Positions 1 through 13,888 of a stretch of DNA of 14,076 nt are shown one piece after another (within the stretch, counting starts at the first letter, position 1; the number at the start of each line of letters is the position of its first letter). The position numbers and the translations under genes are program-made. The stretch lies in IMG/VR virus record IMGVR_UViG_2541047688_000003; one strand, 5' to 3'. This DNA is from a virus. Lineage: Duplodnaviria > Heunggongvirae > Uroviricota > Caudoviricetes. The notes under the pieces are model-generated. The model ran no database searches. It was not told the DNA's origin and worked only from the letters and a program-made list of their open reading frames with translations.

Positions 1-1143
1 CTATGCTGTTTTGATATCTACGATAATCCAGTCTTTACCACGATCATCATTGTATCGGTCGGTCATTTTTCTGGATTTATGACCTAACAACTTTTGCGTA
101 TCCAGACCCTGTTCCCGATATAACCGTTCTGACAGAGATCGCTGCTCATGAAATGTGGGCGCAGTTCCTGGCTCCCATTTTATGCCACATTTTTCCCTGG
201 CCTTTTTAAAAGCCGTTGTAAGAGTATTTGCAGACACCTGGTCTCCTCTGTTTGCTTGAGAGGTAGTGTGACGGTAATGGACCAGATATTTACTAACAAC
301 AGCATCCCTGCACTGAGATATAACTTCACGAAGGGTAATATTCAGAGCATCGCATTTCAGGTTAAGCGGAATAGCAAGTTTTGAACCGGTTTTTTCCTGA
401 GTAATGTGCAACATGTCGTCCCAGATATCAGAGAATTTCAAATTGCAGATATCGCCTAAACGTTGTCCAGTGACAAGAGCAAGTAGCATCCCGCATTTTA
501 AATAGGGCTGCCGTCTGCTTACGCTGTCAAATATTGCCTGCCATTCGGGCAGTGATAATCTTTGGCGGTTTACTCGATTTCGCGGTTGTTTTGTTGCCTG
601 CGCTGGGTTAAATCCTGGCGGAACATGTCCTGCGTGTTGTGCTTCTTTGAAGACGTCGATCAACACCATTCTCACGACTTGCGCCATCCTGTTATGACCT
701 TCAGCCTTTACAGCATCAATTATTTCGGCAATATCAAGTGCGGTAATATCCTTGAGGTGTTGCATTCCACAATGCTCACGGAAAAGACGAATGGGTTTGC
801 CTTTTTGCCGATAGGAGTTGGGTCTTAGTTCATTATGTTGCAGCCTGTCCTCCTGGATAGAAATATATTTATCAAGCCATTCTGTCACCGTAATGTCTGA
901 GCGCCTGCCTTTCATTCTTTCTAGACGCTCATTGACGCTTAATATTTGTCGGGTACGTTGTTCAGCAATAATGGTATTTGCTTCAGTAGCAACTTGTTTT
1001 GCTTCATTCTCATCAGTTCCTAAGCTATGAAAACGACCGGATAGTGGATGTTTGTATTGCCAATATACCTTTCCGGTTCGCTTATCTAATTTGCAATATA
1101 AATTGGGTATAGAGATTTTGTGAGATCGGGGTCTAGCAGCCAT
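1..1143 (-). CDS. int: Phage tyrosine integrase, lambda Int-like architecture (380 aa)
   Basis: Full ORF with ATG at 1141-1143 and TAG at 1-3. C-terminal catalytic region carries HxxR and LGHKSRKMTDRY (tyrosine nucleophile context). Overlapped at its 5' end by an excisionase-like gene, as in lambdoid phages. Sequence is not lambda Int itself. Confidence 0.9.
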   Translation of the reverse strand: MAARPRSHKISIPNLYCKLDKRTGKVYWQYKHPLSGRFHSLGTDENEAKQVATEANTIIAEQRTRQILSVNERLERMKGRRSDITVTEWLDKYISIQEDRLQHNELRPNSYRQKGKPIRLFREHCGMQHLKDITALDIAEIIDAVKAEGHNRMAQVVRMVLIDVFKEAQHAGHVPPGFNPAQATKQPRNRVNRQRLSLPEWQAIFDSVSRRQPYLKCGMLLALVTGQRLGDICNLKFSDIWDDMLHITQEKTGSKLAIPLNLKCDALNITLREVISQCRDAVVSKYLVHYRHTTSQANRGDQVSANTLTTAFKKAREKCGIKWEPGTAPTFHEQRSLSERLYREQGLDTQKLLGHKSRKMTDRYNDDRGKDWIIVDIKTA

Positions 1144-1369
1144 CAGCGATTATCCGTTGGAGTTTTGGGTTTGCGTTTATTGGGAGTTGCGGTTCTGCAA
1201 GCGTTCCTACAAAACGGGAATTTCGGTCAATCATCCAGTAGCGACCAACTTTTATAGCGGGTGGGGCCATCATTTTCCCTTGCGCGTATTTTTTCAGAAC
1301 TCGCTCACTTGGTGCTAAGTCCCCAAATTCTTCTTTAGCCCAGTCCTGTAAAGTGATTAGTCGAGACAT
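1133..1369 (-). CDS. xis: Excisionase-like small basic DNA-binding protein (78 aa)
   Basis: Strong RBS (GAGGAGG) 5 nt upstream of ATG at 1367-1369. Overlaps the int start by 11 nt. Motif APPAIKVGRYW resembles the lambda Xis PPPVKDGREY region. Confidence 0.75.
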   Translation of the reverse strand: MSRLITLQDWAKEEFGDLAPSERVLKKYAQGKMMAPPAIKVGRYWMIDRNSRFVGTLAEPQLPINANPKLQRIIADGC

Positions 1370-1508
1370 TTGTCCTCCTCTTAGCTGCTGAGGGAGTTTG
1401 TGACCGATATATCTGACATGATATTAAGCTCATGGCAGGTACATCTCTTGACTGGTCATAGAGATAAATTTAATGCTGAGAAATGCAGTATTGAATTTAT
1501 CAATTTTT

Positions 1509-1748
1509 CTATTTCCTGCGTATGGCACGTAACTTCTTAATGTGTTCTGCTGTTTCGATCTCTTCAGCTATCCGATCTGCGTCAGCTTTATTCACAGGTT
1601 CAAAGTCATGATTAAAGCGGAACATGCTGGCGATACATGTTCTGCCTTTTCGGATGTAGTGAACTTTGTTGTGAGTGGAACGCAGGATTTTGCAGGGAGT
1701 GCCGTGGTGGTCGACGTACCAGGTGTTAGGGTAAATCACTCTGAACAT
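1509..1748 (-). CDS. Hypothetical small phage protein (79 aa)
   Basis: ORF with ATG at 1746-1748, co-oriented and tightly packed in the leftward operon. Function not recognised. Confidence 0.5.
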   Translation of the reverse strand: MFRVIYPNTWYVDHHGTPCKILRSTHNKVHYIRKGRTCIASMFRFNHDFEPVNKADADRIAEEIETAEHIKKLRAIRRK

Positions 1749-1773
1749 TCTTGACCTTGTGTTGTGCGGATTG

Positions 1774-2058
1774 TTATTCAGTGCCGATATTTACCTTTAT
1801 CGCGTATACCTTTACCGGTTTATCACCGAAGTGCGGATGTGTGATTGTCTTCACTTCATATCCGTCATACGGAACATCAACTCTGCGGCTGGAATCGTCG
1901 CGCTTCGGATATCCCTTTGTGATAATCAGGCGGTCATGCTTACGGTTAACGAGGCGCTTTTTCCAGTAGTCATTACACAGGCGATACTCTTCCGTTTTCT
2001 CTCCGCGAATCATGGCATCGAAGTATTCACCTTTAACGGCAAGTTGCAGGTTAGCCAC
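1774..2058 (-). CDS. Hypothetical phage protein (about 94 aa, GTG start)
   Basis: GTG at 2056-2058 preceded by AAGGAG 6 nt upstream and located 2 nt after the upstream gene's stop. The longer ORF to 2142 would overlap the upstream gene by 92 nt. Confidence 0.5.
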   Translation of the reverse strand: MANLQLAVKGEYFDAMIRGEKTEEYRLCNDYWKKRLVNRKHDRLIITKGYPKRDDSSRRVDVPYDGYEVKTITHPHFGDKPVKVYAIKVNIGTE

Positions 2059-2791
2059 GGTTAACTCCTTGCTGTGTGGCGTCGAGTAATAAATCCCACA
2101 ACCGCTGAGAGCAATTTCCGCATGTACAGCGTTGACCCACAACGTTTATCGCGTTGCTGATTTCCGGCGTTACCTGTTTAGGAACCATAACCCAACCATC
2201 CGGAGTTACCGGAAGCGAGAACGGCAGCACATCTCTGTGAACAAGTTTTTGCTGTGACAGGTTATCCAGAACTTTCTGTACTGCTGCATCACCGAATACA
2301 CCAAGCGCATCTGCCATAACTCCTACAACCTGATAAGCCTCAGCGCATACCGTGGATAAACCATCCGGAATTACCGGAGAGTTGCCGGGTTCTTTAATGT
2401 GCAAGCGAGGCTCACCATCTTTTGGCTCAGGCCACTGGCGCTCCATGTTGATCTTCAATTTATCTTCCATAGCAACGGTAATTTCAGCATCGCTGATGCC
2501 AGCACGGCGCTGTGCATCCCACAACAGAAACTGCATATCAGCCCACTCGCTAAGATCGTCTGGTTCGGCTGCGGCTTCCAGTGCCTCTTTTGAGAGGTGT
2601 TTCAGTGGACCAATGGGGCCAACGCAGCCAAATGTGGAGTCAGACCATTTGGCATGCTCGTGGCGAATCTGTTCGCGTTCCAGTGATGCCAGTGCAATTC
2701 GTGCTAGTTCCATTTGTTCGCCACGAGTAAGCCCGTTTTCAAGCGGATTTTTAATGAACAATTCAATACGTTCTTTGGTAATAGTGGTCAT
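2051..2791 (-). CDS. Phage accessory protein (246 aa); N-terminal region recalled as DUF550/MazG-like nucleotide pyrophosphohydrolase-type, C-terminal module with PVxPDG motifs
   Basis: ATG at 2789-2791 with GAGGA RBS, ATGA overlap with the upstream gene's stop. Domain assignment is from memory of prophage protein families and is unverified. Confidence 0.7.
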   Translation of the reverse strand: MTTITKERIELFIKNPLENGLTRGEQMELARIALASLEREQIRHEHAKWSDSTFGCVGPIGPLKHLSKEALEAAAEPDDLSEWADMQFLLWDAQRRAGISDAEITVAMEDKLKINMERQWPEPKDGEPRLHIKEPGNSPVIPDGLSTVCAEAYQVVGVMADALGVFGDAAVQKVLDNLSQQKLVHRDVLPFSLPVTPDGWVMVPKQVTPEISNAINVVGQRCTCGNCSQRLWDLLLDATQQGVNRG

Positions 2792-2997
2792 GTGTTAATC
2801 CTCAAAACTTTATGCCCGGGCGCAAAAGTACGTGTTTTGTCTTTGCTTATTCGCCACCCGTCTTTACGGGCCTCTTTTGCACAACCAGACCATGACGTAC
2901 CGATATACTCACCGAAGTCTGGCACTGGATATACACCTTCCGTACACTGGCGACAATCACAATAGAGATGCATGGTGTAACTTGCGGCAATAGCCAT
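2788..2997 (-). CDS. Small Cys/His-rich putative zinc-binding protein (about 69 aa)
   Basis: Internal ATG at 2995-2997 sits 3 nt after the upstream gene's TGA with a purine-rich RBS. HLYCDCRQC and SWSGC motifs. Alternative start at 3039 would overlap the upstream gene by 41 nt. Confidence 0.5.
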   Translation of the reverse strand: MAIAASYTMHLYCDCRQCTEGVYPVPDFGEYIGTSWSGCAKEARKDGWRISKDKTRTFAPGHKVLRINT

Positions 2998-2998
2998 A

Positions 2999-3532
2999 TC
3001 ACTCTCTTTTTCCCTGAAGCATGGCAGCGTGGCAGGCATCCTCTACGCCCTTAACTGCATCTGCGCAGTAGTTATAGCGATTGCATTCCACTAACTTCTG
3101 CCTGAGATTTTCAATTGCTTGCGCGACATCAGCCTGTATTACAGGAACTGGCGGAACGGCTGTCTGCTGCTCTCGAACGTCATTAGTCGCTATCGGTTCT
3201 GCTGCCAACTGACTGGCATATTTGTTAATGGTAACGATAAGCTCTTGCTCAGCCTCATCCAGACAATCACCGATACCTCGCCTGTCGCCGTCAAAATCAT
3301 CGAAATCAGCACGAACTCTGGCAAATTTCAGGATTGCGGACAACACCTCACCAGGAATTACCGGAGAGTTGGTTGACGTTTCCGAAATTTCCCGAAAATT
3401 ATTGGTTGACGAATTCGCGTTTTCCCGAAAGTTTCCGGCATGAAGCATAGCCGCGCGGCAGGCGTTCCAGCCTCTCACCTCTGCAATAGCGGCAACAGCA
3501 TCGACCGCGTACATGCTAAGAGGGTTAGGCAT
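2999..3532 (-). CDS. Phage accessory protein with low-complexity in-frame tandem repeat (about 177 aa; start uncertain)
   Basis: Long minus-strand ORF. Candidate starts are ATG 3530-3532, GTG 3557-3559 and TTG 3605-3607 (the ORF-track start). Contains the NSPVIPGE motif shared with the neighbouring gene. Confidence 0.55.
   Translation of the reverse strand: MPNPLSMYAVDAVAAIAEVRGWNACRAAMLHAGNFRENANSSTNNFREISETSTNSPVIPGEVLSAILKFARVRADFDDFDGDRRGIGDCLDEAEQELIVTINKYASQLAAEPIATNDVREQQTAVPPVPVIQADVAQAIENLRQKLVECNRYNYCADAVKGVEDACHAAMLQGKRE
3371..3430 (-). repeat. Imperfect tandem direct repeat (about 30 nt, 2 copies), in-frame within a CDS
   Basis: ggttgacgtttccgaaatttcccgaaa followed by ttggttgacgaattcgcgttttcccgaaa. 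Encodes FRENANSSTNN / FREISETSTNS on the minus strand. Confidence 0.6.
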
Positions 3533-3549
3533 TGGTTTTTCTTCAGGTA

Positions 3550-3804
3550 CTACTGGCACTGGCTTGGCATATATAGCGGCTGAACATACCAACCCTTTGA
3601 TAACCAACTGTCAGCAATGTTTTTACTCCTCGTTATTGCCGGAATACCTAAGCCATTGTCTGAATGCAGCCATGCCACCGGATTCTCTTCCAGCGATGCC
3701 AGAGCAATTTCATAAGCCCGGCGCTCAACATTGTCTCGCACATCCAAACTGCTGATACGCTCTTTGATTTCTTTAATCAGTTCTTTGTCGGTAAAAGTGC
3801 TCAT
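3550..3804 (-). CDS. Hypothetical phage protein (84 aa) sharing an IALASLE module with the 246-aa protein
   Basis: ATG at 3802-3804 preceded by GGAG with a 7-nt spacer, 1 nt after the upstream TGA. The longer track ORF to 3825 overlaps the upstream gene. Confidence 0.6.
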   Translation of the reverse strand: MSTFTDKELIKEIKERISSLDVRDNVERRAYEIALASLEENPVAWLHSDNGLGIPAITRSKNIADSWLSKGWYVQPLYMPSQCQ

Positions 3805-3805
3805 A

Positions 3806-4570
3806 TCAATCTCCATTGGTATCAATGTTTACAGCCTGACAAGACTCTTTGAGCACCCAGTCAATAGCGTCTTTCCATGCCTCTGTTTCGACTGGTGGAT
3901 TTTCACGCTTAACCTGTTCATAGAAGCGCACTGCTTTAACCAGTCCTTCCGGTACTACTGGTGATGGCTGTTTAGCTTCTAAATCAGCAATTCTGTCAAC
4001 CACGGCATCGACAGCATCTGAAAAGCCGAACCAGTTGCTCCACTCCGGCTCATCCCCGGTTGCTGCAAAGTACATATCTGCTAAAGCAGATTCAGCATGG
4101 TCACGCTCGTTAATGAGTTGCTCTTCGCTTTTCTCCAGTTCAGCAATACGCTTACCCCCATCCGAGATAACACCTTCGTAATACTCACGCTGCTCGTTGA
4201 GTTTTGATTTTGTCTCCTCAAGCTCAACTCTCAGCTTCCCAACAGTAAGAGCAATATCCTCGTTCTCCTGGTCGCGGCGTTTTATGTATTGCTGGTTTCT
4301 TTCCCGTTCATCCAGCAGTGCCAGCACAGTAGCCGGATTGGCTGCGGCGATGAATTCAGCATTGGCCTGCTGTTCCATTTGGAAATCTTCATCGAAACCG
4401 CTTTCTGGATGCGCTCCTTCAATTCTGCAAATGGGAATATATCCAGCAACTTCACGATGAATTAGCGCATAATCACCATCAAATCGGCTCTCTCCATATT
4501 CGAGCGACCACTCACCACACGTTGCTTTTTCTGCCGCTTCACGCAGTGCCTGATAGTTAATTTCGCTCAC
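3806..4570 (-). CDS. Ead/Ea22-like protein (254 aa) with central coiled-coil-like region
   Basis: GTG start at 4568-4570 overlaps the upstream stop (GTGA) with GAGAGG RBS. N-terminus QALREAAEKAT...NAEFIAAANPATVLALLD matches my recollection of the Ead/Ea22-like family. Charged heptad-like middle region. Confidence 0.75.
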   Translation of the reverse strand: MSEINYQALREAAEKATCGEWSLEYGESRFDGDYALIHREVAGYIPICRIEGAHPESGFDEDFQMEQQANAEFIAAANPATVLALLDERERNQQYIKRRDQENEDIALTVGKLRVELEETKSKLNEQREYYEGVISDGGKRIAELEKSEEQLINERDHAESALADMYFAATGDEPEWSNWFGFSDAVDAVVDRIADLEAKQPSPVVPEGLVKAVRFYEQVKRENPPVETEAWKDAIDWVLKESCQAVNIDTNGD

Positions 4571-4788
4571 TTCGAACCTCTCTGTTTACTGATAAGCTCC
4601 AGATCCTCCTGGCAACTTGCACAAGTCCGACAACCCTGAACGACCAGGCGTCTTCGTTCATCTATGGGATCGCCACACTCACAACAATGAGTGGCGGATA
4701 TAGTCTGGTAGTTCAGACGACGCATTTTTATTGCTGTATTGCGCTGTAATTCTTCAATTTCTGATGCTGAATCAATGATGTCCGCCAT
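4567..4788 (-). CDS. TraR/DksA-family C4 zinc-finger protein (73 aa), lambda Orf73-like
   Basis: CCECGDPIDERRRLVVQGCRTCASC gives a CxxC...CxxC C4 finger with the conserved spacing of the TraR/DksA family. Size and position match the TraR homologue recalled in lambda's early-left operon. Confidence 0.75.
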   Translation of the reverse strand: MADIIDSASEIEELQRNTAIKMRRLNYQTISATHCCECGDPIDERRRLVVQGCRTCASCQEDLELISKQRGSK

Positions 4789-4837
4789 CTTTCATTAATC
4801 CCTGAATTGTTGGTTAATACGCTTGAGGGTGAATGCG

Positions 4838-4865
4838 AATAATAAAAAAGGAGCCTGTAGCTCCC
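4838..4865 (-). terminator. Candidate intrinsic terminator or attenuator inside the leftward operon
   Basis: On the minus strand: GGAGC-UACAG-GCUCC stem-loop (plus coordinates 4850-4864) followed by UUUUUUAUUAUU (4838-4849). Stem is short (5-6 bp). Confidence 0.35.
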
Positions 4866-4886
4866 TGATGATTTTGCTTTTCATGT

Positions 4887-5168
4887 TCACCGTTCCTTAA
4901 AGACGCCGTTTAACATGCCGATCGCCAGGCTTAAATGAGTCGGTGTGAATCCCATCAGCGTTACCGTTTCGCGGTGCTTCTTTAGTACGCTACGGCAAAT
5001 GTCATCGACGTTTTTATCCGGAAACTGCTGTCTGGCTTTTTTGATTTCAGAATTAGCCTGACGGGCAATGCTGCGAAGGGCGTTTTCTTGCTGAGGTGTC
5101 ACTGAACAAGCCCCATGTCGGCAAGCATAAGCACACAGAATATGAAGCCCGCTGCCAGAAAAATGCAT
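4887..5168 (-). CDS. Hypothetical phage protein (93 aa as drawn; true start uncertain)
   Basis: ORF with ATG at 5166-5168 but poor RBS. An internal GTG at 5100-5102 overlaps the stop of a 27-codon upstream ORF (see findings). Confidence 0.45.
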   Translation of the reverse strand: MHFSGSGLHILCAYACRHGACSVTPQQENALRSIARQANSEIKKARQQFPDKNVDDICRSVLKKHRETVTLMGFTPTHLSLAIGMLNGVFKER

Positions 5169-5178
5169 TCAGTGGTTG

Positions 5179-5370
5179 TCATACCTGGTCTCTCTCATCT
5201 GCTTCTGCTTTCGCCACCATCATTTCCAGCTTTTGTGAAAGGGATGTGGCTAACGTATGAAATTCTTCGTCTGTTTCTACTGGTATTGGCACAAACCTGA
5301 CTCCAATTTGAGCAAGGCTATGTGCCATCTCAATACTCGTTCTTAACTCAACAGGAGATGCTTTGTGCAT
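5179..5370 (-). CDS. orf63: Lambda Orf63-like protein (63 aa)
   Basis: 63-codon ORF immediately downstream of orf60a in the same order as recalled for lambda. Identity from memory, unverified. Confidence 0.6.
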   Translation of the reverse strand: MHKASPVELRTSIEMAHSLAQIGVRFVPIPVETDEEFHTLATSLSQKLEMMVAKAEADERDQV

Positions 5371-5525
5371 ACCGCCTCCCGTTTATTATTTATCTTCTCA
5401 GCCAGCCGCTGTGCTTTCAGTGGATTTCTGATAACAGAAAGGCCGGGAAATACCCAGCCTCGCTTTGTAACGGAGTAGACGAAAGTGATCGCGCCTACCC
5501 GGATATTATCGTGAGGATGCGTCAT
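5343..5525 (-). CDS. orf60a: Lambda Orf60a-like protein (60 aa)
   Basis: ATG at 5523-5525 overlaps the exo stop (ATGA). Sequence [29 protein letters not shown] matches my recollection of lambda orf60a. Confidence 0.6.
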
Positions 5526-6202
5526 CGCCATTGCTCCCCAAATACAAAACTAATTTCAGCCAGTGCCTCGTCCATTTTTTCGATGAACTCCGGCACCATC
5601 TCGTCAAAACTCGCCATGTACTTTTCATCCCGCTCAACCACGACATAATGCAGTCCTTCACGCTTCATACGCGGGTCATAGTTGGCAAAGTACCAGGCAT
5701 CTTTTCGCGTCACCCACATGCTGTACTGCACCTGGGCCATGTAAGCCGATTTTATGGCCTCGAAACCACCGAGCCGGAACTTCATGAAATCCCGGGAGGT
5801 AAACGGGCATTTCAGCTCAAGGCCGTTGCCGTCACTGCATAAACCATCGGGAGAGCAGGCGGTGCGCATACTTTCGTCGCGATAGATGATCGGGGATTCA
5901 GTAACATTCACGCCGGAAGTAAACTCAAACAGGGCTCTGGCGTCGTTCTCGTACTGTTTTCCCCAAGCCAGCGCCTTAGCGTTAACTTCCGGAGCCACAC
6001 CGGTGCAAACCTCAGCAAGCAGGGTGTGGAAGTAGGACATTTTCATGTCAGGCCATTTCTTTCCGGAGCGGGGTTTTGCTATCACGTTGTGAACTTCTGA
6101 AGCGGTGATGACGCCGAGCCGTAATTTGTGCCATGCATCATCCCCCTGTTCGACAGCTCTCACGTCGATCCCGGTACGCTGCAGGATAATGTCCGGTGTC
6201 AT
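5522..6202 (-). CDS. exo: Lambda exonuclease (Red alpha), 226 aa
   Basis: Translation [40 protein letters not shown]...GFVFGEQWR is essentially lambda Exo by recall. ATGA overlap with bet as in lambda. Confidence 0.97.
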
Positions 6203-6984
6203 GCTGCCACCTTCTGCTCAGTGGCTTTCTGTTTCAGGAATCCAAGAGCTTTCACTGCTTCGGCCTGTGTCAGTTCTGACGATGCGCGAATGTCGCGGCG
6301 AAATATCTGGGAACAGAGCGGCAATAAGTCGTCATCCCATGTTTTATCCAGGGCGATCAGCAGAGTGTTAATCTCCTGCATGGTTTCATCGTTAACCGGA
6401 GTGATGTCGCGTTCCGGCTGACGTTCTGCAGTGTATGCGGTATTTTCGACAATGCGCTCGGCTTCATCCTTGTCATAGATACCAGCAAATCCGAAGGCGA
6501 GACGGGCACACTGAATCATGGCTTTATGCCGTAACATCCGTTTGGGATGCGACTGCCACGGCCCCGTGATTTCTCTGCCTTCGCGGGTTTTGAATGGTTC
6601 GCGGCGGCATTCATCCATCCACTCGGTAACGCAGATCGGATGATTGCGGTCTTTGCGGTAAATCCGGCATGTACATGATTCATTGTCCTGCTCAAAGTCC
6701 ATACCATCAAACTGCTGGTTTTCATTGATGATGCGGGACCAGCCATCAACGCCCACCACCGGAACAATGCCGTTCTGCTTATCAGGGAAGGCGTAAATTT
6801 CTTTCGTCCACGGATTAAGGCCGTACTGGTTGGCGACGATCAACAATGCGATGAACTGCGCATCGCTGGCATCACCTTTAAATGCCGTCTGGCGAAGAGT
6901 GGTGATCAGTTCCTGTGGGTCGACAGAATCCATGCCGACACGTTCAGCCAGCTTCCCTGCCAGCGTTGCGAGTGCTGTACTCAT
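6199..6984 (-). CDS. bet: Lambda Bet (Red beta single-strand annealing protein), 261 aa
   Basis: Translation [44 protein letters not shown]... is essentially lambda Bet by recall. Confidence 0.97.
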
Positions 6985-6989
6985 CCGTT

Positions 6990-7286
6990 TTATACCTCTG
7001 AATCAATATCAGCCTGATGGTGAGCAATGGTTTCAACTATGTACCGGATGTGTTCTGCCATGCGCTCCTGAAACTCAACATCGTCATCAAACGCACGGGT
7101 AATGGCTTTTTTGCTGGCCCCGTGGCGTTGTAAATGATCGATGCATAGCGATTCAAACAGGTGCTGGGGCAGGCCTTTTTCCATGTCGTCTGCCAGTTCT
7201 GCCTCTTTCTCTTCACGGGCGATCTGCTGGTAGTGACGCGCCCAGCTCTGAGCCTCAAGACGATCCTGAATGTAATAAGCGTTCAT
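6990..7286 (-). CDS. gam: Gam, short form (GamS-type RecBCD inhibitor), 98 aa
   Basis: [21 protein letters not shown]...[10 protein letters not shown] matches the C-terminal 98 aa of lambda Gam. Own RBS CAGGAG upstream. The N-terminal extension coding sequence is present but out of frame (see findings). Confidence 0.93.
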
Positions 7287-7812: not shown

Positions 7813-9782
<1,970 letters not shown>

Positions 9783-10409: not shown

Positions 10410-11093
10410 ATGTCCCGTTTTGTCCTCGGTAACTGCATCGATGTTATGGCCCGTATTCCTGATAACGCCATTGATTTCATACTGACTGACCCGCCGTACC
10501 TCGTCGGTTTCCGTGACCGTTCCGGGCGCACCATTGCCGGTGATGTTAATGATGACTGGCTGCAACCTGCCAGCAATGAGATGTACCGCGTACTCAAAAA
10601 AGACGCGCTGATGGTCAGCTTCTACGGCTGGAACCGTGTCGATCGCTTTATGGCCGCCTGGAAACGCGCCGGATTCAGCGTGGCAGGGCACCTCGTGTTC
10701 ACCAAAAACTACACATCCAAATCTGCGTATGTCGCGTACCGTCACGAATGCGCTTACATCCTGGCAAAGGGCAGTCCGGCCCGGCCCCGTAACCCTCTGC
10801 CGGATGTGCTGGGCTGGAAATATTCAGGCAATCGTCATCACCCGACGGAAAAGCCCGTTACCAGCCTGCAACCACTGATTGAGAGCTTCACACATCCGAA
10901 CGCGATTGTGCTGGACCCGTTTGCAGGCAGCGGCTCAACCTGCGTCGCTGCCCTCCAGTCCGGACGCCGGTATATCGGTATCGAGCTGCTTGAACAGTAT
11001 CACCGTGCCGGACAGCAACGACTGGCCGCCGTGCAACGGGCCATGCAGCAGGGGGCCGCGAATGATAACTGGTTTGAACCGGAGGCTGCGTAA
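10410..11093 (+). CDS. Orphan DNA amino-methyltransferase (DPPY motif, beta-class N6-adenine/N4-cytosine), 227 aa
   Basis: AAGGAG RBS 7 nt upstream. Catalytic motif TDPPYL near the N-terminus and SAM-binding motif DPFAGSGST near the C-terminus. No restriction endonuclease partner is visible in the window. Confidence 0.9.
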   Translation: MSRFVLGNCIDVMARIPDNAIDFILTDPPYLVGFRDRSGRTIAGDVNDDWLQPASNEMYRVLKKDALMVSFYGWNRVDRFMAAWKRAGFSVAGHLVFTKNYTSKSAYVAYRHECAYILAKGSPARPRNPLPDVLGWKYSGNRHHPTEKPVTSLQPLIESFTHPNAIVLDPFAGSGSTCVAALQSGRRYIGIELLEQYHRAGQQRLAAVQRAMQQGAANDNWFEPEAA

Positions 11094-11315
11094 ATGAACT
11101 ATGCCGGACACGAAAAACTTCGCGCCGACGTGGCGGAGGTGGCCAACACCATGTGTGACCTTCGGGCCAGGCTGAACGATATGGAGCATCGCTGTCGCTT
11201 TGATTCCGATGTGCTTGTTGAACGCCTGACACGCCAGACGCTGTATCGCGCCAATCGCCTGTTCATGGAGGCGTATACCGAAATTCTGGAACTGGATTCC
11301 TGCTTCAAAGATTGA
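11094..11315 (+). CDS. Hypothetical protein (73 aa)
   Basis: ATG immediately after the methyltransferase stop codon, GGAGG 10 nt upstream. Co-oriented in the same gene block. Confidence 0.6.
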   Translation: MNYAGHEKLRADVAEVANTMCDLRARLNDMEHRCRFDSDVLVERLTRQTLYRANRLFMEAYTEILELDSCFKD

Positions 11316-11328
11316 GAAGGAGACGAGA

Positions 11329-11763
11329 ATGTACGGAACATGCGAAACGCTATGCCGGAAGCTGGCAGCAAAGTATTCGGGAGACACGCCACTGATGCTG
11401 GTTATCTGGTCCCCGGAAGAAATTCAGGCCCTCTCTGACGGAATGGATATTGCCCTGACCGATCATGAAATCAGGACTGTCCTGGCGCGCCTGGAGGACA
11501 TCCCGGAAGACCAGCGGACTGAATCCGGTATTTCTTCCGGCGTGGCGATGGAGATCATCAATAACGTGAGCGAAAACCGCCAGGTGACTGTCCCTGCTGA
11601 ACTGCTGGCGTCCCTGATTCAGACCGCTGAACAGGCATTGTGGAAACGTGAATGGGCCGCCTGGGATCATGGCCTCGCCGTCCCGGAATGCGTCACCCGC
11701 CGTCAGGCGGTGGTTAATCAGGTCCGCATCCTGCTGAAAAACAACACACACGAAAACGACTGA
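11329..11763 (+). CDS. Plasmid leading-region protein, DUF1380-like (144 aa)
   Basis: AAGGAG RBS. Shares the motif R(Q/H)VTVPA(E/V)(L/M)L and a near-identical start region with the 13466-13888 ORF. Family name from recall, unverified. Confidence 0.75.
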   Translation: MYGTCETLCRKLAAKYSGDTPLMLVIWSPEEIQALSDGMDIALTDHEIRTVLARLEDIPEDQRTESGISSGVAMEIINNVSENRQVTVPAELLASLIQTAEQALWKREWAAWDHGLAVPECVTRRQAVVNQVRILLKNNTHEND

Positions 11764-11766
11764 TGT

Positions 11767-11790
11767 TATCGCCGCCTCCGGGCGGCGATA
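11767..11790 (+). other. Perfect hairpin without U-tract between genes
   Basis: TATCGCCGCC-TCCG-GGCGGCGATA (10-bp stem, 4-nt loop) immediately after the stop at 11761-11763. No T-run follows. Confidence 0.5.
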
Positions 11791-11807
11791 CAGGGAGTTC
11801 ATGAATT

Positions 11808-12578
11808 ATGAATGAAATGCTGAATGCACTGATTTATCGCCACGCCAGCAACCTGTTGCTGGCGCAGGGCTGGCCGGAAGAGACGGATGTTGACCAGCGT
11901 AACCCGAAGTATCCGGGCTGGATCAGCATTTACGTGCGGCTGGATGCGCCCCGGCTGGCGACGTTACTTATCAAGCGTCACGGCGGCGTACTGCCGCCGC
12001 TCCTGGCCTCTGCCATTCAGAAACTGACCGGAACCGGAGCGGAACTTGTTCTGTCCGGCAGTCAGTGGCAGTCGCTGCCGGTACTTCCGGCAGACGGAAC
12101 GCAGGTGTCTTTCCCGTATGCCGGTGAGTGGCTGGCAGAGGACGAAATCAGGGCCGTTCTTGGTGCGGTACGCGATGCAGTATGCAGTGTCAGTTACCAG
12201 GTGGCAGAAGATGCGCGGCGTATCCGTGCGGCGCTGACCACCACCGGTCAGACGTTGCTGACCCGCCAGACGCGCCGCTTTCGCCTGGTGGTGAAGGAAA
12301 GCGATCACCCCTGCTGGCTCGATGAAGACGACGAAAACCTGCCCGTGGTGCTCGATGCCATCCTGAACCGGGGCGCTCGTTTTTCGTCGGTGGAAATGTA
12401 TCTGGTCAGTGAGTGTGTGGAGCATATCCTGTCCAGTGGGCTGGCCTGCGATATGCTGCGTATACCGGATGAACCGCCCCGCCGCTGGTTTGACCGTGGT
12501 GTTCTGCGGGAGGTGGTCCGGGAAGCCCGGAACGAAATCCGCAGCATGGCGGATGCCCTGGCAAAAATCCGGAAATGA
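11808..12578 (+). CDS. Uncharacterised protein (256 aa)
   Basis: Long plus-strand ORF with AGGGAG upstream. No recognisable motif. Embedded between antirestriction-type genes. Confidence 0.75.
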
Positions 12579-12585
12579 TGACGCT

Positions 12586-12611
12586 GGCGGGGAAAAATCT
12601 CCGCCTTTTCC
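12586..12611 (+). terminator. Intrinsic terminator
   Basis: GGCGGGG-AAAAAT-CTCCGCC stem (one G-U pair) followed by TTTTCC, 8 nt after the stop codon. Confidence 0.5.
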
Positions 12612-12720
12612 AGTCGGTCCCCGGAAAGAGCAAAAGGATGTCGCCGCAGGCTCCTCTTTACCCGGCCATGTGGGGCATGGCCTTGTGGGTTTTCAGTTAT
12701 GTGGCCTCAGCGTCGTGTGC

Positions 12721-12956
12721 GGGCTGTGCCGTGCCTCCATCGTAGCCGGGCTTCTGCGGGCGGGTTGCAAGGTAAGGTGAACCGCTGCGGTCACCCGGTC
12801 CCTCCTTCCCGTCTGCCGTGATTTTCCGGTCGTTCACCCGCTCAGATTTCGCGGTCTCACCCTCCAACTCCCGTCAGCCGTGCGCGTCAGGCTGCGGCTT
12901 CCCTTGCGCCCTTGCAACCCTGCAGGCCCGGCAAAGATGGAGGCACGGCACCGCCC
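12721..12956 (+). promoter_or_regulatory. Second long imperfect inverted repeat (about 50-nt arms); candidate single-strand promoter or structured regulatory element
   Basis: Arm 12721-12772 pairs with arm 12910-12956, including a perfect 14-nt core gccgtgcctccatc / gatggaggcacggc. Lies upstream of klcA. Confidence 0.4.
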
Positions 12957-12993
12957 GGTGTCGCGGAATATGTGAACAACGGAGGAAAACATC

Positions 12994-13419
12994 ATGCAAT
13001 ATGCGAAACCTGTCACTCTGAATGTTGAAGAGTGCGACCGTCTCTCCTTTCTGCCTTACCTGTTTGGCCTGGATTTTCTGTATGCCGAGGCATCTGTGTA
13101 CACGCTGGCGAAAAAAATGATGCCGGAATATGAAGGCGGATTCTGGCACTTCATCCGCCTGCCGGACGGTGGCGGTTACATGATGCCGGATGGCGACCGT
13201 TTTCATCTGGTTAACGGTGAAAACTGGTTTGACCGTACCGTGAGTGCTGATGCCGCAGGCATCATCCTTACCTCCCTTGTGATTAACCGCCAGTTGTGGC
13301 TGTACCACGACAGCGGGGATGCAGGGTTGACACACCTGTACAGGATGCGCGATGCGCAGTTGTGGAGCCACATCGAATTTCACCCCGAATGCAACGCGAT
13401 TTACGCGGCACTTGACTGA
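12994..13419 (+). CDS. klcA: ArdB/KlcA-family antirestriction protein (141 aa)
   Basis: GGAGG RBS. Motifs [30 protein letters not shown] and [12 protein letters not shown] parallel ArdB/KlcA proteins as recalled. Confidence 0.85.
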
Positions 13420-13428
13420 TTAACGGAC

Positions 13429-13447
13429 GGGGCGGCAATGCCGCCCC
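13429..13447 (+). other. GC hairpin without U-tract upstream of the next RBS
   Basis: GGGGCGGC-AAT-GCCGCCCC 8-bp perfect stem, followed directly by AAAGGAGACGAGAAC and ATG at 13466. Confidence 0.45.
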
Positions 13448-13465
13448 TGTAAAGGAGACGAGAAC

Positions 13466-13888
13466 ATGTACTGTACTGTTAAAGAAATCATCCGCGATGT
13501 ACTGGATACAGACGTGCCGGACAGTGAATGCGTTTTTGCCGTGGTGCTGACCCGTGGGGATGTGCGTCACATAGCCCAGGACTGGAGTCTGACAGACGAT
13601 GAGCTGGAAACCGTCATGCAGCGGCTGGACGATGCTTTTGTATATGGCGCATGTGACAGAGTTGTTTCCGATATTGTAAATGAACTGATGGAAGAAAAGC
13701 GCGCCAGCCGTCATGTGACAGTCCCGGCGGTGATGCTGGAAAAAGTGATGGCGCTGGCAGGCAGTGAAATGAAGCGCCTGTATGCCGTCGGGAGTGAGAA
13801 CGGGGGCGACGGTGACGCATTCGTCAGGGAGGAACGCGAAGCAATGGACGTTGTGTTACAGGCGCTGGACGGGGAGCACATGTCATGA
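13466..13888 (+). CDS. DUF1380-like paralogue (140 aa)
   Basis: Same RBS and start context (aaggagacgagaacatgtac) as the 11329 gene. Shared RHVTVPAVML motif. Confidence 0.75.
   Translation: MYCTVKEIIRDVLDTDVPDSECVFAVVLTRGDVRHIAQDWSLTDDELETVMQRLDDAFVYGACDRVVSDIVNELMEEKRASRHVTVPAVMLEKVMALAGSEMKRLYAVGSENGGDGDAFVREEREAMDVVLQALDGEHMS

Follow-up and report, generated by a model that had tools for sequence, protein, structure and literature searches.

Work by the Donaldson and Wegrzyn groups treats the Ea22 proteins of phage lambda and of the Stx phages as mosaic and refers to DUF551 as a "portable domain" (PMC10834534, PMC7093339); a pro-lysogenic activity and tetramerization of lambda Ea22 have also been reported (PMC7093339, PMC10834534). 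The locus considered here, the accessory genes between xis and the Red genes in IMG/VR virus record IMGVR_UViG_2541047688_000003 (Caudoviricetes; the whole stretch of 14,076 nucleotides (nt) that was analyzed is called the window below), resembles those mosaic Ea22 proteins in its region, from exo to xis, and in an architecture in which a conserved N-terminal Ead/Ea22 part and a coiled coil are followed by unrelated C-terminal domains. Unlike the published accounts of Ea22, the joints between modules that are found in the window link DUF550 and many modules outside Ea22 too; a word search of both papers (PMC10834534, PMC7093339) returned no mention of a proline linker, of joints at the DNA level, or of crossovers in shared blocks. 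As the first-pass annotation had proposed, the accessory genes encode multi-module proteins that share blocks, and these repeats, in our opinion, probably represent conserved module joints acting as homology patches for in-frame recombinational exchange. Ea22 mosaicism and phage recombination through short homology were known before; the new elements are a specific in-frame joint that occurs very widely and is conserved as DNA, and direct examples of crossovers within it that link Ea22, DUF550, DUF551, and many unnamed modules. A search of the accessible literature for the motif strings found no relevant paper, which, most subscription journals being uncovered, is weak evidence of novelty.

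The origin of mosaicism in phage genes is an old dispute, in which random illegitimate joining followed by selection is set against homologous exchange at short conserved "linkers." Short conserved border sequences were reportedly proposed as sites of module-exchanging homologous recombination by Susskind and Botstein in 1978 and, for HK620, by Clark et al. in 2001. The linkers of that modular theory lie mainly between genes or blocks of genes, whereas the joints described here are intragenic and in frame, encode linkers or helix ends, and are used combinatorially (at least 77 combinations). Another comparison is offered by the tail-fiber adhesins of T4-type phages, in which glycine-rich motifs of gp38 and the "His boxes" of gp37 delimit hypervariable segments and are thought to mediate their shuffling. 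The short conserved in-frame motifs that separate variable segments are the shared feature; the adhesins, however, are host-range determinants of virulent phages, whereas the joints belong to early accessory proteins of temperate phages.

A related mechanism is relaxed or homeologous recombination by Red beta and other Rad52-like phage recombinases. To pair efficiently, Red beta needs a minimum of 23-27 base pairs (bp) and RecA a minimum of 31-34 bp (De Paepe et al. 2014, PMC3945230), Red-mediated recombination tolerates divergence (Martinsohn et al. 2008, PMC2327257), and about half of the mosaics examined in these two studies are flanked by traces of homology (PMC2327257, PMC3945230). Phage mosaicism through short or diverged homology would be common to those cases and to the present one, and the window encodes exo, bet, and gam nearby. 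The Red beta studies, however, measured recombination by experiment on other sequences, whereas the joints are known from sequence alone, and several blocks, at 18-22 nt, fall short of the minimum reported for Red beta.

The joints lie in three large genes: an Ea22-like gene (3806-4570), a multi-module gene split between two open reading frames (ORFs), and a DUF550 gene (2051-2791). The first-pass annotation had noticed two nucleotide blocks that recur between these genes, as well as a proline motif that recurs five times at the protein level. The first block, the 18-mer GGAATTACCGGAGAGTTG, has exactly two copies, at 2367-2384 and 3354-3371, so that the coordinates given earlier (2369-2386 and 3355-3372) were off by 1-2 nt; two matches never occurred in 200 dinucleotide-preserving shuffles, even when 3 mismatches were tolerated. 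The second block, the 21-mer TTCCAGYGATGCCAGWGCAAT at 2678-2698 and 3688-3708 (chance expectation 0), is also real; it extends to 22 shared nt and reads TTCCAG(Y)GATGCCAG(W)GCAAT with its variable positions. The range previously assigned to its first copy (about 2672-2707) contains that copy, while the range assigned to the second (about 3664-3700) overlaps it in part. Both blocks are far above background. An independent repeat search recovered them (repeats D2 and D8) and added repeat D6 (3541-3564 vs. 3946-3969), repeat D7 (3015-3037 vs. 3441-3463), and repeat D1, a 33-nt tandem pair of 78% identity (3369-3433); Tandem Repeats Finder, with a minimum score of 30, reported no repeat over 1400-4900, the 33-nt duplication being under its threshold. 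On the coding strand the 18-mer is translated as N-S-P-V-I-P and the 21-mer as I-A-L-A-S-L-E. All five proline motifs are present on the minus strand, and the pattern P[VI][IVT]P[DEG][GE] has these 5 occurrences and none elsewhere in the six frames of the window. Three joints absent from the earlier list (PPVPV, ACRAAML, and ACHAAML) join the set, which would comprise two kinds: proline-rich linkers, namely (A)GNS-PV[TI]PDG-W and a second class, P-PVVPE-E/G; and conserved helix ends, namely IALASLE and AC[RH]AAML. The blocks, together with a tandem repeat that adjoins one of them, are as follows:

2192-2218, minus strand: joint SLPVTPDGW (CCGGTAACTCCGGATGGT) of the DUF550 gene, the most widespread form; LPVTPDG is residues 193-199 (2195-2212)
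2360-2386, minus strand: joint GNSPVIPDG of the DUF550 gene, containing copy 1 of the 18-mer (2367-2384); SPVIPDG is residues 138-144 (P-to-G codons, 2360-2377)
2678-2699, minus strand: IALASLE block, copy 1, in the DUF550 gene
3017-3037, minus strand: ACHAAML block, helix end of module E of the split gene; repeat partner 3443-3463
3140-3154, minus strand: PPVPV proline joint of the split gene, with a breakpoint cluster at 3138-3167
3347-3371, minus strand: joint NSPVIPGE of the split gene, containing copy 2 of the 18-mer (3354-3371); SPVIPGE is at 3347-3364
3368-3433, minus strand: two tandem 33-nt (11-residue) units, NFRENANSSTN and NFREISETSTN, in a linker upstream of the NSPVIPGE joint
3443-3463, minus strand: ACRAAML block, helix end of module C of the split gene; repeat partner 3017-3037
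3539-3568, minus strand: joint AKPVPVVPEE (PVVPE class) of the split gene; VPVVPEE is at 3539-3556
3688-3709, minus strand: IALASLE block, copy 2, in the split gene, with 22 nt in common with 2678-2699
3944-3970, minus strand: joint QPSPVVPEG (PVVPE class; CCAGTAGTACCGGAAGGA) of the Ea22-like gene; SPVVPEG is residues 203-209 (3944-3961)

The first line of evidence for exchange at these blocks is the position of homology breakpoints. Window positions 1-5200 were aligned to 240 related loci (238 from IMG/VR that encode relatives of the three large genes, and 2 GenBank phages), and alignments with 85% identity or more contributed their ends, each counted once per distinct flank. Breakpoints cluster strongly at 2192, directly past PVTPDGW (9 distinct flanks); at 2355-2361, directly past PVIPDG, where the homology of many loci ends at 2359; at copy 1 of IALASLE (20 in 2671-2710, with a break at 2699, and 18 with distinct flanks within 10 nt of the block); at 3354 and 3371, which coincide exactly with the limits of the 18-mer; at 3555-3564, the upstream edge of PVPVVPEE (17 distinct flanks); at 3687-3704, including 3688, in copy 2 of IALASLE; and at 3940-3969, in the PVVPEG joint. 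Two more clusters, at 3138-3167 and 3439-3472, correspond to PPVPV and ACRAAML, and breakpoints cluster at gene boundaries too. When enrichment was scored against the seven features of the first-pass annotation, with 10 nt added on either side, 35 of the 41 internal breakpoints of the DUF550 gene and 31 of the 61 in the split gene were at blocks; a further 33 in the split gene cluster at 3138-3167 and 3439-3472 (slightly wider limits). Over the whole range, 73 of 293 breakpoints are at features that cover 12% of it (permutation P ~0.04).

The second line of evidence is provided by natural in-frame chimeras, i.e., loci in which non-adjacent segments of the window abut, as verified by three-way alignment. 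These are of four kinds, with the crossover within a shared block of 22, 20, 27, or 24 nt. In three loci (L048, L049, and L050), a crossover in the 22-nt IALASLE block links the N-terminal module encoded by 3550-3804 to the DUF550 body; L049 is 90% identical to the window on the side of the N-terminal module and 99.6% identical on the side of the DUF550 body. The two PV[IT]PDG copies (20 nt) connect 2359 to 2213 in L053, L063, and L078, with loss of the intervening module, and ACRAAML/ACHAAML (27 nt) connects 3439 to 3039 in L135, L138, and L143. Finally, eight loci (e.g., L205 and L208) encode an Ea22-like protein fused at …QPSPVVPE to the split-gene module that follows PVVPEE (past 3564), with 24 nt shared. 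The blocks exist, they stand at module borders, and relatives differ by crossovers inside them. Recombination that used the shared blocks as substrates would be expected to yield such chimeras, which, together with the breakpoints at blocks, support the earlier suggestion that modules may have been shuffled by recombination.

The same chimeras bear on the strongest of the alternatives, although we consider it unlikely, which is that selection alone produced the pattern: modules would be joined illegitimately at random positions, in-frame joins at domain borders alone would survive, and the motif would be kept as a flexible proline linker and not as DNA on which recombination acts. The motifs are in predicted coil between folded elements, which makes selection at the protein level plausible, and many breakpoints fall where there is no such motif, namely at the boundaries of genes and within the Ea22 coiled coil. 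Illegitimate joins, however, typically share 0-5 nt, whereas each of the chimeras examined shares 20-27 nt at the crossover. Moreover, the need for a linker peptide would not by itself freeze synonymous sites across 69 to at least 77 combinations of modules.

These combinations come from two collections. A scan of IMG/VR without selection of homologues found the 18-mer CCGGTAAYTCCGGATGGT in at least 120 loci (at least 124 sites), joining at least 37 upstream to at least 32 downstream module types in at least 77 combinations; among the matches listed, the consensus of the joint is (A)GNS-PVTPDG-W. Among the loci selected as homologues, 34 upstream and 24 downstream contexts meet at the motif in 69 combinations, and its codons are near-fixed: GTA encodes 57 of 66 Val, ACT 33 of 35 Thr, and GGT 36 of 37 Gly, while in the window's own genes GTA accounts for 20% of Val codons and ACT for 28% of Thr codons. 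The DNA of the joint thus appears to be conserved beyond the needs of the peptide. Between loci unrelated in both far flanks, the exact-match tract at the joint has a median length of 31 nt (interquartile range 24-45). Since 18-45 identical nt, with the same codons, stand beside otherwise unrelated modules, these stretches can be regarded as patches of homology. Recombination at such patches, between co-resident or co-infecting phages and prophages, would yield in-frame swaps, insertions, deletions, and fusions, most plausibly through annealing of the Red beta/RecT type; the 24-45-nt tracts fit this phage pathway, and exo, bet, and gam are directly upstream in the window.

In complete E. coli genomes, the modules are ubiquitous and the present combination is rare, because 4,169 of 5,426 genomes match part of 2000-4600 (median 2 and maximum 13 places per genome) and just 86 have 80% or more of that stretch at a single place. 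As a side observation, 892 of the matching places in this collection are on plasmids of ~90-105 kb, probably phage-plasmids, and short matches are also seen on yfdS and yfdT, in the cryptic prophage CPS-53 of K-12.

The third line of evidence is the agreement of the proline motifs with domain borders. By Pfam, PHROG, and AlphaFold secondary structure, the motifs are at module junctions and not inside domain cores. The DUF550 protein (246 residues) consists of module A', a predicted MazG-like dATP/dGTP pyrophosphohydrolase domain, a joint, the two-helix module F, a second joint, and the C-terminal module G. Its match to PF04447 covers residues 42-137 (positions 1-96 of 97 in the profile; 141.8 bits vs. 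a cutoff of 23), and this dATP-dGTP_PPHyd match stops at residue 137, SPVIPDG beginning at 138. Compared with MazZ/DUF550 dATP/dGTP pyrophosphohydrolases (PF04447), which residues 42-137 match, the window protein adds an N-terminal module and two C-terminal ones by way of the joints. The Ea22-like protein (254 residues) matches PF13935 over residues 2-146 (138.1 bits vs. a cutoff of 27, E = 4e-40), is annotated as Ea22 in PV340572 and NC_049948, and comprises the Ead/Ea22 N-terminal domain, a coiled coil, the proline joint, and a small C-terminal module. PHROG profiles match both proteins piecemeal, with ends at the motifs; the DUF550 protein has such partial matches at residues 38-137, 145-195, and 190-210, and the Ea22-like protein at 1-203 and 195-252. 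The Ea22 coiled coil itself contains three dense clusters of breakpoints (4129-4153, 4209-4232, and 4301-4362), and there is no proline or helix-end block there.

AlphaFold models of the DUF550 protein and of P0121, a relative of the split-gene product, have a mean predicted local distance difference test score (pLDDT) of 42 and 49, respectively; because of this poor confidence, the secondary-structure pattern alone was used, and no fold searches were made. In these models each proline motif is in coil between helices, in the stretches of lowest pLDDT, whereas IALASLE and AC[RH]AAML are at helix ends. The first-pass proposal that the motifs mark interdomain linkers accordingly holds for the proline motifs, which are coil at junctions, and fails for IALASLE, which is the helical 3' end of the N-terminal module and the best-conserved part of that module of ~40 residues.

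Slightly less probable than selection on a linker is that the motif is a functional short peptide, a docking or processing site for a host or phage factor, to which the position of breakpoints would be secondary. GNSPVTPDGW is strikingly constant as a peptide over many contexts, and its carriers are all early-operon accessory proteins. Several proteins, however, have two or three copies, always between modules; the PVVPEE class and the non-proline blocks IALASLE and ACRAAML act alike at breakpoints; and the peptide matched no known binding motif and was not found in the searchable literature. A function at the peptide level is, in any case, compatible with exchange at homology patches and not exclusive of it.

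That the repeats are remnants of duplication within one phage, with paralogous neighbors and no role in exchange between genomes, is very improbable: the N-terminal modules of 2051-2791 and 3550-3804 do share phrog_3323 and phrog_660, and the 33-nt unit at 3368-3433 is tandemly doubled, but the neighboring genes are unrelated outside the short blocks, identical blocks join dozens of other partners in other genomes, and the natural chimeras contradict it. As to the two N-terminal modules, we regard them as related because of the shared PHROG profile matches; their DNA similarity is limited to the first 15 nt and the 21-mer, and pairwise BLASTP aligned IALASLE alone, with a non-significant E of 0.079.

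Homology patches that permit in-frame exchange therefore remain the probable explanation, against which several considerations weigh. Enrichment of breakpoints at the seven features is modest overall (P ~0.04), because many are in the Ea22 coiled coil or where genes meet, away from any motif of the first-pass annotation; within the Ea22-like gene, 7 of 103 internal breakpoints are at the proline motif, and most are in the coiled coil. The breakpoint counts lack phylogenetic independence, and the conservation of codons could partly reflect common descent of the linker with a neighboring module. The shortest blocks (18-22 nt) are under the published length for efficient pairing, and the structure models, as indicated by their mean pLDDT of 42 and 49, are of low confidence. 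Finally, the evidence is comparative throughout: recombination is read from sequences, and homology-driven exchange is inferred by comparing them.

A role for DNA structure at the joints was considered and dropped. The PV[IT]PDG joints (2364-2378 and 2199-2213) contain a mini-palindrome, TCCGG-N5-CCGGA, which is missing from joints of the PVVPE class; their folding is weak (about -5 kcal/mol, z -1.3 to -2.3). The PVVPEE joint (3532-3566) is essentially without predicted DNA structure, and the PVVPEG joint folds weakly through other pairing, so that no structural signal is common to all joints. The window contains no Chi sites.

The second of the three large genes deserves separate description. 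The overlapping ORFs 3550-3804 and 2999-3607 are both covered by phrog_5117; ORF 3550-3804 and positions 2999-3568 are one gene split by a 1-nt deletion. The sequence GGCTATATATAGCGG of two relatives (L175 and L178) corresponds to GGC-ATATATAGCGG in the window, and the window and its identical copies therefore carry the deletion, a T missing on the plus strand between 3568 and 3569, within TATATA. A conceptual in-frame fusion, built by joining the frames at PLY|AKP, matches proteins of 259-400 residues over 100% of the length of the fusion. Full-length in-frame relatives include P0121 (259 residues, 92% identical) and P0123 (263 residues), and many relatives of ~400 residues bear additional modules and a DUF551 tail. 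The frameshifted form is common in databases (P0163, P0193, and P0200, with many member sequences). The two halves are organized as follows:

3550-3804, minus strand: 5' half, with N-terminal module A (ending in IALASLE) and variable module B
2999-3568, minus strand: 3' half (phrog_14306, 366 bits)
between 3568 and 3569: position of the 1-nt deletion

The 3' half has, in order, the AKPVPVVPEE joint, module C (ending in ACRAAML), the linker that bears the repeats, module D, the PPVPV joint, and module E (ending in ACHAAML). The 11-residue unit of the linker, NFRExxxxSTN, varies in copy number among relatives, with three copies in L299.

The window is identical over 1400-4900 to Escherichia phage PhiR57_1 (PV340572.1, at equal coordinates) and to phage ev017 (NC_049948.1). 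All genes of interest are on the minus strand and form the distal, exo-xis part of the leftward early operon, in which the Ea22-like gene is placed between exo and xis, like lambda ea22. In transcription order, the genes are:

minus strand: kil, the first gene listed
6990-7286, minus strand: gam
6199-6984, minus strand: bet
5522-6202, minus strand: exo
between exo and the TraR-like gene, minus strand: homologues of orf60a, orf63, and orf61
4567-4788, minus strand: TraR/DksA zinc-finger gene
3806-4570, minus strand: Ead/Ea22-like gene (PF13935)
3550-3804, minus strand: ORF, 5' half of the split gene
2999-3607, minus strand: ORF that overlaps 3550-3804 and holds the 3' half of the split gene
2788-2997, minus strand: small gene (phrog_926) between two multi-module genes, without a match in the Pfam profile search
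2051-2791, minus strand: DUF550 gene (PF04447)
1774-2058, minus strand: ASCH-like gene
1509-1748, minus strand: DUF4222 gene
minus strand: xis, then int, the last genes

The label "moron" given to this region by the first-pass annotation finds no support. Morons are autonomous units that have a promoter and a terminator of their own, sit between the genes of an operon, and often deviate in composition. This possibility was rejected for want of an excess of promoters and of a shift in composition: promoter-like sites numbered 3 against 5.3 expected, and G+C is even across the region (0.45-0.51). Gene ends abut or overlap at 4567-4570, 3804-3806, 2788-2791, and 2051-2058. A terminator-like hairpin followed by a T-run is present on the minus strand at 4848-4866, in the gap between the orf61 homologue and the TraR-like gene. 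Farther upstream, an IS21-family element is inserted in the leftward operon just past kil; past this element (10410-13888), genes are on the plus strand and look like an anti-restriction module of a plasmid or island, unlike a lambdoid immunity region:

7813-9782: IS21-family element
7813-8613: IstB-like ATPase of the element
8610-9782: IstA-like transposase of the element
10410-11093, plus strand: N6/N4 DNA methylase
11329-11763, plus strand: DUF1380
12994-13419, plus strand: Antirestrict-family protein

The C-terminal end of the DUF550 protein illustrates the variability that accompanies the most widespread joint. Its 120 close homologues (P0001-P0120) are 98-99% identical up to residue 201 (…LPVTPDGW) and then diverge into dozens of different C-terminal sequences, mostly variants of DUF551 that start with WISCSERMP and finish with WMPLPEPPQEV. 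Close relatives have DUF551 after the PVTPDGW joint, while the window has a different module of 46 residues there, and no protein of the window matched DUF551 (PF04448) in the Pfam profile search. This exchangeable cassette is the following:

2054-2191, minus strand: C-terminal cassette, module G in the window, with the joint at 2192 and the gene boundary at 2057-2065 as its limits

Module G is preceded by a different upstream module in L318. The C-termini that follow PVTPDGW vary in length, and zinc-ribbon-like and other modules occur besides DUF551; the downstream limit of the cassette is a conserved C-terminus, …PPQEVNRG, which overlaps the start of the next gene. A diversity-generating retroelement was considered as the source of DUF551 variability and rejected, since the variants differ widely in length and content and not at fixed codons; no reverse transcriptase was seen in the window. 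A tentative possibility, which we offer as speculation, is that the joint, beyond serving as a passive linker, is a nucleotide-level DNA "adapter," with frozen synonymous sites and typically 24-45 shared nt. By means of it, phage annealing recombinases might exchange hypervariable C-terminal effector domains, such as DUF551 variants, in frame among the several prophages that one cell contains; early accessory proteins caught up in an arms race, be it with the host or with competing phages, would thus be diversified by recombination.

The joints would link the modules of a mosaic superfamily of accessory proteins in enterobacterial lambdoid phages, annotated variously as Ea22, EaA, DUF550, or DUF551. 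They offer a compact and abundant natural test case for the homologous-exchange view of mosaicism as applied to protein domains, with at least 77 pairs of modules linked by one 18-nt sequence and with parts of the region matching about three quarters of complete E. coli genomes. They also supply domain boundaries for many uncharacterized Ea22, DUF550, and DUF551 proteins, explain the inconsistent naming of such genes by annotation pipelines, and flag DUF551 as a hypervariable, exchangeable domain with a function worth finding.

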